A stretch of DNA of 49,696 nt from the NCBI GenBank assembly GCA_019307745.1, contig JAFDJA010000002.1, positions 1 through 49,696 on the forward strand, given 5' to 3'. Shown one piece after another: positions 15,682 through 49,696 of the stretch. The notes below the pieces were generated by a model, which was not told the origin of the DNA, made no database searches, and saw nothing but the letters and a program-made list of their open reading frames with translations. How positions within the stretch are numbered: position 1 is the stretch's first letter; each line of letters starts with the position of its first letter. Made by a program: the position numbers and the translations under genes. This stretch comes from Deltaproteobacteria bacterium. GTDB lineage: Bacteria; Desulfobacterota; DSM-4660; Desulfatiglandales; HGW-15.

Positions 15682-15739
15682 ATTTATATCCGAACTATGA
15701 GAAATGGATATTGAAACAGAAATAAGACGAGGGGTAAAA

Positions 15740-18184
15740 ATGGAAAATTCTATGATTAGTAATGGTTTTGACAACGTGGCAGAGCAGCCCCGAATAGGTG
15801 TCTATGTCTGCCATTGTGGGCTAAATATCGCACAGACTGTAGATTGTCCGGCAGTGGCGGAATTTGCTGCCGGGTTGGATAACGTGGCAGTCTCAAAGGA
15901 TATAATGTATGCCTGCTCAGAGCCGGGTCAACATGAGATCAAGGAGGATATCCTTGATAGCAAGCTGGATAGAGTCGTTTTAGCCTCTTGTTCTCCGAGG
16001 CTCCATGAACCGACATTCAGGCAGGTTCTTAAGGAAGCTGGCCTTAATCCATACCTTTTGGAGATGGCGAATCTTCGGGAGCAATGTAGCTGGGTGCATA
16101 TGGGTGAGCCTGAGGATGCCACGGATAAAGCAAAAGACCTCGTGAAGATGGCAGTATCCCGAGCATCTCTGCTCCAGCCCCTGGAAGAGGATACCATTCC
16201 TTTGACAAAAAAGACCCTGGTTATTGGCGGAGGTATCGCTGGAATTCAGGCCGCGCTGGAACTGGCAGATAACGACTATGATGTGATACTGGTGGAAAAG
16301 AGGCCGTCGATCGGTGGAGTTATGGCTCAGATTGATAAGACTTTTCCCACCATGGATTGCTCCATCTGAATACTCGGTCCTAAGATGACGGATGTCGGTC
16401 GACATCCCAAAATAAAACTCCTCACCATGAGTGAGGTCATGGGCGTTAAGGGCTCTGTGGGTAATTTCAAGGTGAATGTCCTGAAAAAGGCCCGTTATGT
16501 GGAAGAAAATGAGTGTACTGCATGCGGAAAATGCGCGGAGGTCTGCCCTGCTGTGCGGCCCGATGAATTTAATCTAGGGCTTTCATCACGCAAGGCCATT
16601 TACATATCTTTTCCCCAGGCCGTCCCATCTTCCTATGTTATAAATGTGAATGAATGTCTGGGACACAATCCCATTGTGTGCGGTAAGTGTATAGAGGCAT
16701 GCGATAAGGAATGTATCAATTTCCACATGTCTGATGAAGAGATCGAAGAGAAGGTGGGCTCGATTATAGTGGCAACAGGCCTTGAACCTTATGACCCCAC
16801 CGCCATGGATGAATATGGTTATACCAGGTTTGAAAATGTCCTTACCAGTCTTGAATTTGAGCGTATTATCAATGCGGGAGGCCCTACTCAAGGTAACCTT
16901 ATTAGACCAACAGACAGGGAACGTCCCAGATCAGTAGGCTTTAGTCAATGCGTGGGATCCCGTACACTCAGAAAGGGGAGCAGCTATTGTTCAAATATCT
17001 GCTGTATGAATACAATCAAAAGTACCTTGCTGATCAAAGAGCACTATCCTGATATAGATATCAAGGTATTTTATATAGATATCAGGTCATCCGGGAAGGG
17101 ATTTGAGGACCTGTACAGGAGGAGCAGAAAAGAGGGGGTCCAGTATATAAGGGGGTTGCCAGGAAATATAGAGGAAACAGGGGAAAAGGGGTTGATGGCT
17201 GCTGTTGAAAACATCGTAACAGGCAAGCTGGAAATCCATGACCTAGATATGCTGGTCCTGTCCCAGGGAATACAACCTGCGCCCAGCACCCAGAGGCTTC
17301 AGGAGTCACTGGGGCTCCAGCTCACATCTGATGGTTTTTACCTTGAGGCCCATCCAAAGCTTCTGCCTGTGGATGCTGCAACACGCGGTATATTTTTCGC
17401 TGGATGTGCTGAAGGGCCCAAAGATATCAAAGAGAGTGTTACCCAGGGTTCTGCTGCCGCAGCTCGAGCCATTCGTTTGATGCACAAGGGGAGCATCACC
17501 ACTGAACCAATAATTTCTCAGGTAGATCCGGAACTGTGCAAGTTCTGCGGAAAGTGTGCGGAAGTGTGTCCGTATAATGCCATATCCATTGATACCAAGA
17601 AGAGGATACCTGCTGAGGTCAATACGGCATCATGTGCAGGATGCGGCACTTGTGCGGCAGAGTGCGTGTTTGATGCGATTTCCATGAACCATTTTACAGA
17701 CCGACAGATACTTGGTCAGGTCGATGCCATGCTTGAGGAAAAGACCGATGAAAAAATTCTGGTCTTTGCGTGTAATTGGTGTTCCTATGCGGGAGCAGAC
17801 AATGCCGGTGTATCCAGGTTCCAGTACCCTCCTAATATTAGGCTGATCAGAACCATGTGTTCAGGAAGAGTTGATGAAAAATTTATATGGGAAGGTTTTG
17901 AAAGGGGGGCTCCGATAATTCTGGTCAGTGGGTGTCATATAGGTGACTGCCATTATATAGATGCCAACCAATGGACTGTAAAACGTATCCAGAAGATACA
18001 TAAGAAGATGGCAAGGATGGATATTAGGCCTGACAGGCTCCGGCTTGAATGGGTTAGTGCTGCAGAGGGTGTCCGCTTTGCCGAGATAATGCGTGATTTG
18101 GAGAGACTCCGTAAGGAAGTAACATCTGAAGAGATTGGAGAAACAGTCCGTATACTCAAAGAGCGAAAAAATAACTCTAAATAG
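15740..18184 (+). CDS. hdrA: Selenocysteine-containing heterodisulfide reductase subunit A with C-terminal MvhD domain (~814 aa)
   Basis: ORFs 15704-16369 and 16385-18184 are in the same frame, joined by TGA at 16367-16369 in KTFPTMDCSI-U-ILGPKM, a conserved Cys position. Also GVYVCHCG, GGGIAG, QCVGSR, YCSNICC and C-terminal CNWCSYAGAD/RTMCSGR/GCHIGDCHY. Confidence 0.92.
16390..16407 (+). promoter_or_regulatory. Bacterial SECIS-like hairpin of hdrA
   Basis: GGATGTC-GGTC-GACATCC: perfect 7-bp stem with a G-led loop, 27 nt after the UGA. Confidence 0.75.
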
Positions 18185-20826: not shown

Positions 20827-21468
20827 ATGATAGCAATAATAGATTATAATGCGGGCAATCTTACGAGTGTTAAACGGGCACTTGATTTTCTTGGACAGAA
20901 ATCAGTAATTACCAGTGATTTTTCAACAGTGGTTAATGCTGAGAGAATTATCTTCCCTGGTGTTGGGGCTGCGGGGAGGGCCATTTCTGACCTTCGTCAA
21001 CGAAAACTTGACAGAGCTATTCTTGAAGTCTTTAATTGTGGCAAGCCTATTCTCGGCATATGCCTTGGCACTCAAATTATTATGCAAAGGAGCCAGGAAA
21101 ACAATACTGTATGCCTTGGATTAATAAAAGGCGATGTTAAACTGTTTTCTGAAAATCTTTCAGACGGGCAATGTGGTCGGCTGAAAGTACCCCATATGGG
21201 CTGGAACAGTATTAGATTGAATAAGGCCCATCCCCTTTTTGATGGGGTCGATCCGTCCAGTGAGTTTTATTTTGTTCATTCTTACTATCCAGTGCCTGAT
21301 GAACAAGATAAAATTCTTGGTGAGACCTCATACGGGATTCAATTTGCGTCAGTCCTCATTTCAAAGAATCTGATTGCCATGCAGTTTCATCCTGAAAAGA
21401 GCGGAAGACCAGGCCTGAGGATACTTGATAATTTTTGCAGATGGAATGGAAAAGGTTATGCTGAGTAA
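20827..21468 (+). CDS. hisH: Imidazole glycerol phosphate synthase, glutaminase subunit
   Basis: [41 protein letters not shown]. Confidence 0.96.
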
Positions 21469-47047: not shown

Positions 47048-48223
47048 TTAACGATAAAGTGGATGGTTGGGTTTCATAACTTTTCTCCATTCCTCTGGTT
47101 GTTCCTCCTGCCAGGATGGAATTTTCATTTTCTTTTTACGGTATAGTAATGAAGCAACCTTGAGATAGCTTTTCCGGGCTATGTTCGAACGTTCAAATGC
47201 CTTGATAATAAAATTATGTGGGAATGTACGAGGTCGAGTCCAGGGACAATACGCGACACAAAGACTGCAATTAGCGCCTGAACGCAGAAAATATTCGAAA
47301 CAAGCAGAGGCATTAAGCGGCCACTTTTTCACACCCCTGATCGTTTTTTTCTCACCAATATGGATGGCACCTGCGGGACAGTATTTGACACAAATGTTGC
47401 ACTGGCTACAGAACTCATCCACACCTATATCCACCGGCCTATCATATACCAAAGGCATATCAGTAGTTACAGTCATTGGTTTTATAGCGCTCCCATATTC
47501 TTTTGTGATAAATATGCCGTTTCTTGCAAGCTCCCCAAAGCCGGCATCTATTGCCAACGGTACATGCAGCACTTGAGAATTATGATTATGGGCCCTTGCC
47601 TCATACCCAAGTGAGCGAATGTACCGTGCAAGTGTTACTACTATCGTAGATAGGCGAAGGTATATTGCTCCGGTTGCAAGAGCTATTGTAAAACGGGGAG
47701 CACACTCAATTTCATCTTGTTTGTATGCAATCGCTACGACGATAGCATGTTTATTGGGAGGGTGAGCCGGGATATCGCTAGGGTTGCCTGAATGATCGGG
47801 TGAAGATATATTTTTATACGTCCACGATGGATTAAAAGGTCCAATCTTAACCAAATCCGCGCCCAGATGTCGCGCGAAACCCTTTATTTTAGAAGATGCC
47901 CGTTTGGGATCAATAACTATTTTTTCAGGTGCAGGTTCACCGTCTACGTATTCTTCCTTCGCCATGACATTGGGTATAAAACGCATTGCATTCTCCATTA
48001 GCTCATCTTGTGGAGCTATACGAAGACGATGCTTCCTGCTCTTTTGTAGGTCAGCCCATTTTCTGCTTTGGGCTTCAAGATCAGGGTGTTTTCGGTAATA
48101 GCTTTGCCATAATTCACTGTCTGGAATCAAGTGACGGCGCGCCATTACAGTATCGGCCCGGTCTATTCGCTCGAGTTCTCCCACTATCTCATACTTCGGT
48201 TTAACCAACTCCCGTTTTGACAT
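47048..48223 (-). CDS. Reductive dehalogenase-like cobalamin/2x[4Fe-4S] protein without TAT signal
   Basis: IKGFARHLGADLVKIG, YIRSLGYEARAH, PLAIDAGFGELARNG, VTTDMPL, FCSQCNICVKYCPAGAI, C-x9-CSLCVAYCPW; AAGGAGG RBS. Confidence 0.85.
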   Translation of the reverse strand: MSKRELVKPKYEIVGELERIDRADTVMARRHLIPDSELWQSYYRKHPDLEAQSRKWADLQKSRKHRLRIAPQDELMENAMRFIPNVMAKEEYVDGEPAPEKIVIDPKRASSKIKGFARHLGADLVKIGPFNPSWTYKNISSPDHSGNPSDIPAHPPNKHAIVVAIAYKQDEIECAPRFTIALATGAIYLRLSTIVVTLARYIRSLGYEARAHNHNSQVLHVPLAIDAGFGELARNGIFITKEYGSAIKPMTVTTDMPLVYDRPVDIGVDEFCSQCNICVKYCPAGAIHIGEKKTIRGVKKWPLNASACFEYFLRSGANCSLCVAYCPWTRPRTFPHNFIIKAFERSNIARKSYLKVASLLYRKKKMKIPSWQEEQPEEWRKVMKPNHPLYR

Positions 48224-48799
48224 CTGAATAATCCTCCTTACTAATTTTGCATTGCCTTTATTTCACGTCCGGCTCCTCAAGTTCTTTCTTTAATTTTGCA
48301 GAGGGATATTCCGGTTCATATCAATATCACAGTTCCTAGTGGAAAGACTATACACTGTCATAATCAATGCTACGCCTCAAGGGCATTTTTATCAAGCTTT
48401 CGTTTTGTAATCGTTACTGCTTTCTATAAATCAATGAAGGATTTTTCCAGATCAGAAAGGGAGAAAAATGACATGCTTGGATCTGTGTTAGCTTGCCAAT
48501 ATTGGGTAATGTTTGAATCGTTGTATTTTTCATGGACAGCTCTGATTCCTTCTCTATTTACTTGAGGTTTATCTAAGTGTTCACAAAACCGGTGTAATAT
48601 TAATTAGCCAACTTCTATTTAAAGCACTTGATTCACACCCTGTTTTTTTATATAGTCGGTTGCGATTAGTATTGGTTTTTGGCATATATAAATACGGGGT
48701 AGTATGTATATGGCTTCAGGATATGATGATTAAATCCTGGACCTGACTACCCTTTACATATAAATCATTCAATTGAAAATCTGAAGAGGTGTAATTATT

Positions 48800-49531
48800 A
48801 TGAACCAAACTCTCAAAATAGGAGTTATTGGAGATTTTGATCAAAGTCGGCCTTCACAACTCAAGACTGATGAAGCCATAGATCATGTATCAAATGAATT
48901 GTCCGTCGCTATAGATACTATTTGGCTACCGACAAAATCATTGAAAAAGCAAACTGCGGCCACAAAGCTTCGGGATTTCCATGCTCTTTGGGCTGGCCCT
49001 GGTAGTTATGAAAATCCCGACGGAGTAATAGAAGCTATAAGGTTCTGCAGGGAGCAGCAATGGCCTTTTATAGGGACCTGAGGAGGCTTTCAACATACTC
49101 TGTTAGAGTATGCGATTAATGAACTGAATATTAAAAATGCTTCTCATGAAGGAATAAACCCATCTTTATCGACGCATGTAATCAATAAACTTAGCTGTTC
49201 CCTGGTCGGAGAATCCCAAACGATACGTGTTATACCGGCAACCATAGCATATGAGTCTTATGGAAAGGACTTGATCGTTGAAAGGTTTCAATGTAACTAT
49301 GGTTTAAATGAAAAGTATAGAAATGATTTGAGTGATGGAAACCTTAAAATCTCTGGCTTTGATGATGATGATAATGCCAGAATCATTGAGATACCGAACC
49401 ATCGATTCTTTATTGCAACCTTATTTCTACCGCAGTTTACTTCGAAATCCGGCATGTCCCACCCGTTAATTTTGTCGTTTGTTAAAGCTGCAATAAGATT
49501 TAAGGATATGAAAAATAGGAATAATGTGTAG
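48800..49531 (+). CDS. Stand-alone CTP-synthase-like class I glutamine amidotransferase domain protein with in-frame TGA (probable Sec94) at the nucleophile position (243 aa)
   Basis: ORFs 48800-49081 and 49271-49531 are one frame: ...LWAGPGS...WPFIGT-U-GGFQHTLLEYA...LSCSLVG...FQCNYGLN...HRFFIATLFLPQ...HPLILSFVKAA. The only internal stop is TGA at 49079-49081. Confidence 0.82.
49094..49112 (+). promoter_or_regulatory. Bacterial SECIS-like hairpin
   Basis: CATACTCT-GTT-AGAGTATG: perfect 8-bp stem starting 12 nt after the UGA, with a G-led loop. Confidence 0.7.
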
Positions 49532-49696
49532 TAATATGGGTTTACTCAACCAGGCGCTCAAGAGAGAACAGCGGGTAGTGTCCCCTTTTCAAAGAAAGAC
49601 TCAAGAACAGTCTTGTCCCGTTTTTTTTATTAATAAAATATTTGGAAAAACTGAAGGTGTTTTAGTGAAAAGTCCTTTGGGCACTGGGCTTAACAT

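Follow-up and report, generated by a model that had tools for sequence, protein, structure and literature searches.

We found that the reading frame at positions 48800-49531 of the window (the whole stretch of 49,696 nt that was analysed) is best read as an intact gene of the NCBIfam family NF004836 whose product has the fold of a CTP synthase (CTPS) glutaminase domain, and in which an in-frame UGA is predicted to be recoded to selenocysteine (Sec) by means of a hairpin in the mRNA, which would place Sec at the nucleophile elbow. We put the probability of this reading at about 0.85. The locus is a further ordinary member of a family that is already known as one of predicted selenoproteins.

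Translation of this region gave a single forward-strand frame of 243 codons, whose lone internal stop is the TGA at 49079-49081, corresponding to residue 94 in the context PFIGT-U-GGFQH. The initial annotation had held that two ORF fragments here were one frame split by a TGA alone, and that annotation pipelines would see a pseudogene or two fragments; the 243-codon translation agrees with the former, and ORF calling under translation table 11, which returned two ORFs of 93 and 86 amino acids at 48800-49531, bears out the latter. The start codon at 48800 is supported by two homologues (L016 and L017) with GTG at the same codon, and by the contigs of runs X1 and X2, in which position 48800 reads G instead of A. 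We take the ORF to be intact and monocistronic, and its product to be a stand-alone protein (Table 1). Its neighbourhood was not conserved, as the flanks were unrelated across 20 loci and 7 genome loci and no neighbouring genes were shared, so that there was no operon-based clue to the function of the selenoprotein gene. A scan for promoters and terminators was likewise uninformative: it returned five promoter-like sites where 4.6 would be expected, and no terminator. By eye, two ferredoxin-type motifs (CxxCxxCxxxCP) could be seen close to the C-terminus of a divergent ORF of 391 amino acids (47048-48223, reverse strand), and between this ORF and the selenoprotein gene lies an AT-rich spacer of 576 nt.

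Table 1. Positions in the window of the predicted selenoprotein gene and its putative signals.
Feature	Position	Strand	Remarks
Predicted selenoprotein coding sequence, 243 residues	48800..49531	+	ATG at 48800, TAG at 49529-49531
UGA, predicted Sec codon (U94)	49079..49081	+	Aligned with catalytic Cys379 of E. coli CTP synthase
Putative Shine-Dalgarno-like GAAGAGG	48783..48789	+	10 nt 5' of the start codon; picked out by eye
Putative bacterial SECIS-type hairpin	49094..49112	+	8-bp stem, GUU apical loop

With Cys written in place of Sec, the protein matched NF004836 with 298.9 bits against an equivalog cut-off of 260 (E 1.7e-89), residues 5-231 aligning to profile positions 1-227 of 228, and a six-frame search of the genome with the same model gave 291.2 bits with one TGA inside the match. 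The PF00117 (GATase) model scored 33 bits, above its gathering threshold of 22.8. Both PyrG models missed their cut-offs (124.6 bits against 462.75 for TIGR00337, and 127.1 against 308 for NF003792), and the match to the PyrG profile was confined to its C-terminal part, positions 289-526, the N-terminal amidoligase domain being absent. All 25 sequence matches in the PDB were CTP synthases. From 111 family sequences, AlphaFold2 gave a model (pLDDT 95.7, pTM 0.93) whose best Foldseek matches were CTPS glutaminase domains, with TMq of 0.85-0.89. The genome has a separate full-length pyrG, a 532-amino-acid open frame on contig C258, and the selenoprotein is a stand-alone NF004836 paralogue with the CTPS glutaminase-domain fold, not a broken pyrG. 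Three distant loci (28-29% identity), obtained by scanning genome contigs with a single protein query, were considered as Cys-form controls and rejected as ordinary pyrG C-terminal domains.

The comparison of homologues carries most weight in deciding whether the UGA is read. A metagenome scan yielded 19 loci, and TGA was present in 16 of the 16 that cover the active-site column, at 68-98% protein identity (three do not reach that column). Among 201 genomes of the same order, the family occurred in nine, the source genome (G000) included, with TGA in six, TGT or TGC in two and a broken fragment in one; among 401 genomes of the phylum it occurred in two only, both with TGA, and among 300 scored Clostridia genomes in one, as a Cys form. 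The 16 metagenome loci, five further genomes of the same order and one of the same phylum amount to 22 homologous loci of the Sec clade, drawn from independent assemblies and 45-98% identical in protein sequence, and every one of them had TGA at the column. The Cys forms, with TGT or TGC, numbered three (two genomes of the same order and the Clostridia genome). In seven full-length TGA homologues (21 pairs; partial loci were excluded, as were the near-duplicates L016, L017 and L021), dN/dS was 0.13-0.30 for the part before the TGA and 0.07-0.34 for the part after it. Furthermore, contigs from three public DNA runs (X1, X2 and X5) extend across 49079-49112, where no difference was listed; some runs had no contig cover over parts of the stretch, which is evidence of nothing. 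The TGA is thus not peculiar to this assembly, nor is selection relaxed 3' of it, these being two grounds for doubt that the initial annotation had raised; the alternation of TGA and Cys within conserved flanks, to which it had looked for support, was found in the 22 TGA loci and three Cys homologues.

These data also bear on the possibility that the TGA is a genuine stop, produced by a nonsense mutation, by decay to a pseudogene or by an assembly error, so that the two halves do not make one protein. That the gene caller splits the frame into ORFs of 93 and 86 amino acids would fit this explanation, as would the database proteins of 133-140 amino acids, which are C-terminal fragments called in the same way, and the further damage seen in relatives L021, L030, L034 and L012. 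It is nevertheless very improbable, given the same-codon TGA in 22 of 22 clade homologues, the low dN/dS downstream, the agreement of contigs from three runs, and the fact that the TGA replaces a fold-defining active-site residue that is Cys in 106 of 110 aligned database proteins. The comparison of coding sequences indicates instead that the UGA at 49079-49081 is translated.

The additional lesions among the TGA homologues were of several kinds: in L021, on a contig of about 1.7x coverage, a further in-frame stop where Trp is conserved; a frameshift 3' of the hairpin in L030; an N-terminal frameshift in L012 (G384); and in L034 an internal deletion by which the active site is lost. Errors of assembly, or copies in decay, may account for these lesions. 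At the RNA level, one metatranscriptome contig of 151 nt matched 49222-49370, which is too little to claim expression.

When the 111 sequences of the family alignment were compared, with the query counted as Cys, the active-site column held Cys in 107 and Trp in 4. The four database proteins with Trp (P0004, P0007, P0010 and P0043) read GTWGG or GTWAG at this site, and are probably TGA forms that a gene caller translated under a code in which TGA is Trp. In a tree of 74 rows made by a quick method (57 of the 110 database proteins and 16 locus translations, with the PyrG of this genome as outgroup), a clade of 16 rows that contained no Cys form (SH-aLRT 87) united the 13 verified TGA forms with three of the four Trp proteins, and the fourth Trp protein fell in its sister group. 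A single Sec clade, together with a hairpin sequence common to its members, would fit a single switch between Cys and Sec, the support for the clade being moderate.

The 8-bp perfect hairpin with a GUU loop that the initial annotation had described 12 nt past the TGA was found at 49094-49112. It has the sequence CAUACUCU/GUU/AGAGUAUG, with eight perfect pairs and a loop of 3 nt, and the distance from the UGA to the loop is 20 nt. Folded in isolation it reached -7.4 kcal/mol (z = -4.39; 1 of 200 shuffled sequences did equally well), and in contexts of 42 and 71 nt the fold was ordinary (z of -1.59 and -1.33), so that the energy of this single sequence is weak evidence. A search of 48700-49696 against Rfam gave no SECIS or other family near threshold, the five matches being at chance level (E of at least 1).

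Comparison among homologues was more telling. At least seven contiguous pairs at the same offset were present in all 23 TGA forms, the window included, and in none of the three Cys-codon homologues, which lack the hairpin despite a similar peptide at that stretch. The codons that correspond to it, 98-104, had the lowest synonymous diversity in the gene (rank 1 of 227 windows), at 0.022 where the mean over the gene is 0.26 (permutation p about 2e-4; pairwise diversity in windows of 7 codons, 13 non-redundant sequences). Variation in the stem was limited to A-U or G-U at one pair, a change of U-A to U-G at one locus and a broken closing pair in L027, and the loop was GUU, GGU or GAU, with only the middle base varying. 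There were no compensatory double substitutions among the TGA-form homologues, and support for the hairpin therefore comes from conservation and co-occurrence and not from covariation. These patterns, read comparatively, point to a constraint on the hairpin at the RNA level that tracks the TGA; all 22 homologous TGA loci keep the hairpin, and the loss of it among TGA-bearing relatives, which had been put forward as an outcome that would weigh against the proposal, was not seen. Additionally, otherwise unrelated contigs in runs X2 and X5 matched the window only at 49075-49113, that is, over the TGA and hairpin, with three differences. These isolated matches are consistent with nucleotide-level conservation in paralogues or orthologues of other community members.

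The bacterial SECIS (bSECIS) model set out in the available text of PMC13188914 has a loop of 3-9 nt with a G in its first two positions, an upper stem of 4-16 bp, a distance of 16-37 nt between UGA and loop, and an energy of -7.5 kcal/mol or lower. Measured against that description, the hairpin at 49094-49112 fits in its loop, stem and spacing and in having a loop of G first and then U, and at -7.4 kcal/mol it is marginally short of the energy limit.

The host genome encodes most of the machinery that decoding would need. Of the four genes whose presence the initial annotation had proposed to confirm, selA (533.5 bits), selB (379.7 bits) and the tRNA-Sec of selC (73 bits; anticodon TCA by ARAGORN) were present, but selD was not found in this metagenome-assembled genome (MAG), which is 92% complete and in 334 contigs: the best scores were 65.8 against a cut-off of 125 for TIGR00476, and 46 against 299 for NF002098. 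The two best selD candidate ORFs were set aside, as by eye they look like ThiL and HypE. A selD gene was present in 19 of 20 relatives (G704-G717 among them), each with one in-frame TGA, so that in this group SelD, too, is read as a selenoprotein. Given the completeness and fragmentation of the MAG and the presence of selD in nearly all relatives, its absence here is likely an assembly gap. Two separate N-terminal matches to selA were observed, one cut by a contig end (G000:C212:14158-15249) and one of 119 bits containing one TGA (G000:C91:2337-2738); the second may reflect a strain mixture, contamination (estimated at 5.5%) or a paralogue.

A second candidate for Sec use lies within the window. 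The initial annotation had pointed to an hdrA with a UGA and hairpin of the same pattern, and we confirmed that the hdrA-like ORF at 15704-18184 (forward strand) has an in-frame TGA at 16367-16369, giving U223 in the context MDCSIUILGPK, and a GGUC-loop hairpin of 7 bp, which starts 23 nt downstream of the UGA's first base. Its C-terminal part resembles MvhD by eye. This gene looks like a selenoprotein of known type and supports the use of Sec by the host.

TGA closes 9 of the 29 ORFs of at least 200 amino acids in the window, and one of the nine is the Sec codon of hdrA; TGA is an ordinary stop for the other eight, so that the code does not appear to be reassigned. This argues against a reading in which the TGA is translated as Trp or Gly, either through an alternative genetic code in the host or through read-through that is independent of a SECIS element. 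The four database proteins with Trp at the column would fit such a reading, but the residue with which homologues align is Cys and not Trp or Gly, a dedicated conserved hairpin stands beside every TGA form, and selA, selB and tRNA-Sec are in the genome, and we regard it as the least probable of the alternatives considered here, with hardly any weight left to it. From the coding and RNA-level comparisons and the gene content of the host, the UGA is almost certainly decoded as selenocysteine via the downstream hairpin.

We next turn to the residue that the UGA specifies. Counted along the alignment with E. coli CTPS (1s1m), U94 stands in the place of Cys379, L210 in that of His515 and Q212 in that of Glu517, and these three residues of the E. 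coli enzyme are named as catalytic in the available text of PMC9138612. The window protein has the G-x-[U/C]-x-G motif in the form G-T-U-G-G, and the elbow Gln98 and Glu103, common to CTPS, are invariant across the family. The comparison thereby places the UGA at the nucleophile-elbow Cys of a CTPS-type class I glutamine amidotransferase (GATase) fold, as had been proposed when the TGA was described as lying at the catalytic nucleophile. The remainder of the class I triad, H-P-E, was absent in the NF004836 protein and is retained in the PyrG and hisH of the same genome. Across 111 family members, position 210 was Q, L or V and position 212 was Q in 93%, so that the family motif is [Q/L/V]-P-Q. 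The window itself supplies an internal contrast to this triad-less protein in a hisH-like ORF (20827-21468, forward strand), which has the GICLGTQ elbow to which the initial annotation had drawn attention and also keeps QFHPEKS, as in a canonical triad GATase.

Because the family as a whole lacks the triad His and Glu, glutamine amidotransferase activity is uncertain, and the name is a label for the fold and not an established function. The earlier assignment of the protein as a hydrolase or amidotransferase thus stands in respect of the nucleophile position and the fold, but is uncertain as to function, with Leu210 and Gln212 in place of the triad His and Glu. To judge from the alignment, a canonical triad mechanism cannot be assumed for the NF004836 protein. 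Loss of the triad is not mentioned in the accessible portions of the two papers that treat this family as selenoproteins (PMC12013277 and PMC13188914).

In place of the triad, the family has near-invariant residues of its own, C133 (97%), C165 (100%), H99 (95%) and H221 (98%), as well as R194, and the PyrG of this genome lacks the first four. In E. coli CTPS the residue aligned with C165 is His469, and the neighbouring Arg468 and Arg470 of that enzyme line the cleft adjoining the GAT active site according to the text available of PMC9138612. These residues raise the possibility that the protein is a true selenoprotein that is not an amidotransferase or hydrolase at all, but carries out thiol/selenol redox chemistry or binds a metal on a recycled GATase fold, with U94 paired with Cys165 and/or Cys133 (as a selenenylsulfide) or with His99 and His221. 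The family-wide absence of the triad His and Glu, the conservation of four residues that PyrG lacks and the location of C165 between two positions that in CTPS are cleft-lining arginines all favour this idea, and most known selenoproteins are redox enzymes, as the portion of PMC13188914 available states. However, CxxU and UxxC motifs are both absent, the variable neighbourhoods contain no redox-partner genes, and the invariant elbow Gln98 and Glu103, as in CTPS, suggest that a substrate pocket has been retained. We consider a redox or metal-binding role unlikely, while giving it some weight.

Our preferred reading of the function, to which we give about even odds, is that the protein is a covalent (seleno)cysteine-nucleophile enzyme that acts on a glutamine- or gamma-glutamyl-like substrate with the help of a non-canonical base. 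The mRNA hairpin at 49094-49112 would recruit SelB and tRNA-Sec, which would insert Sec at the UGA at 49079-49081, and the Sec would land in the nucleophile elbow G-T-U-G-G-F-Q, at the position of Cys379 of E. coli CTPS. There, Sec94 (or Cys94) would serve as the covalent nucleophile and form an acyl or adduct intermediate. The pKa of a selenol is low, and in the Sec form this would lessen the need for a base.

The missing His and Glu speak against a canonical glutaminase. It is conceivable, although we put this forward tentatively and think it rather doubtful, that NF004836 is not a glutaminase and that, with the His-Glu dyad given up, a different active site has formed around Cys/Sec94, Cys165, Cys133, His99 and His221. 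If this were so, the selenolate of the Sec clade would make a general base unnecessary, and the family would offer either covalent, non-redox selenoester catalysis or redox chemistry of a new, selenenylsulfide kind carried by the scaffold of a hydrolase.

The locus had been proposed as a candidate new selenoenzyme, a claim that earlier work has overtaken. The NCBIfam name of NF004836 already reads '(seleno)protein', and Xiao and Zhang (2025, mSystems, PMC12013277) predicted a 'Glutamine amidotransferase (COG0504, PyrG)' of Desulfosediminicola ganghwensis as a selenoprotein with deep-Sep. In the text available of that paper, the nine newly predicted selenoprotein families include COG0504, for which homologues with TGA and with Cys and a structure resembling a bSECIS are reported, and the prediction is said still to need verification. 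The review of Zhang et al. (2026, PMC13188914), in the part accessible, lists the family with NF004836 and the motif GxUxG. These were the only two papers found in the literature on selenoproteins with CTP synthase or glutamine amidotransferase. As the family has been both catalogued and published as a predicted selenoprotein, the locus is not new.

The existence of this selenoprotein family is therefore no longer news, and what the locus still offers is its correct annotation and a triad-less active site. Gene callers still split the gene, leaving C-terminal fragments of 133-140 amino acids and four 'Trp' versions in the protein database, and a fitting annotation would be one selenoprotein coding sequence with a transl_except at 49079-49081. 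The family is among the few predicted selenoproteins in which Sec occupies a hydrolase-type nucleophile position and not a recognisable redox motif, none of which has been characterised. With the catalytic His and Glu missing from the family, and with TGA forms that share one hairpin and, in the tree described above, fall in one clade, it is a sensible choice for an initial biochemical study.

Relative to the glutaminase domain of the CTP synthase PyrG (E. coli 1S1M, S. solfataricus 3NVA), the NF004836 protein has the same fold at 20-32% identity. The elbow G-x-C/U-x-G-x-Q is common to both, U94 stands at the Cys379 position and Glu103 is kept; the NF004836 protein, however, lacks the N-terminal synthase domain, being 243 amino acids long, and has Gln-Cys-Asn where E. 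coli PyrG has Arg468-His469-Arg470. The loop of the hairpin likewise differs from that of the hdrA hairpin in the same window, which is GGUC, whereas the homologues of the selenoprotein gene have GUU, GGU or GAU. Compared with the COG0504 selenoprotein of D. ganghwensis by its published description only, in the text available, the protein described here has the same GxUxG position for Sec, homologues with TGA and with Cys, and a hairpin directly 3' of the codon, and at that level nothing essential differs between the two.
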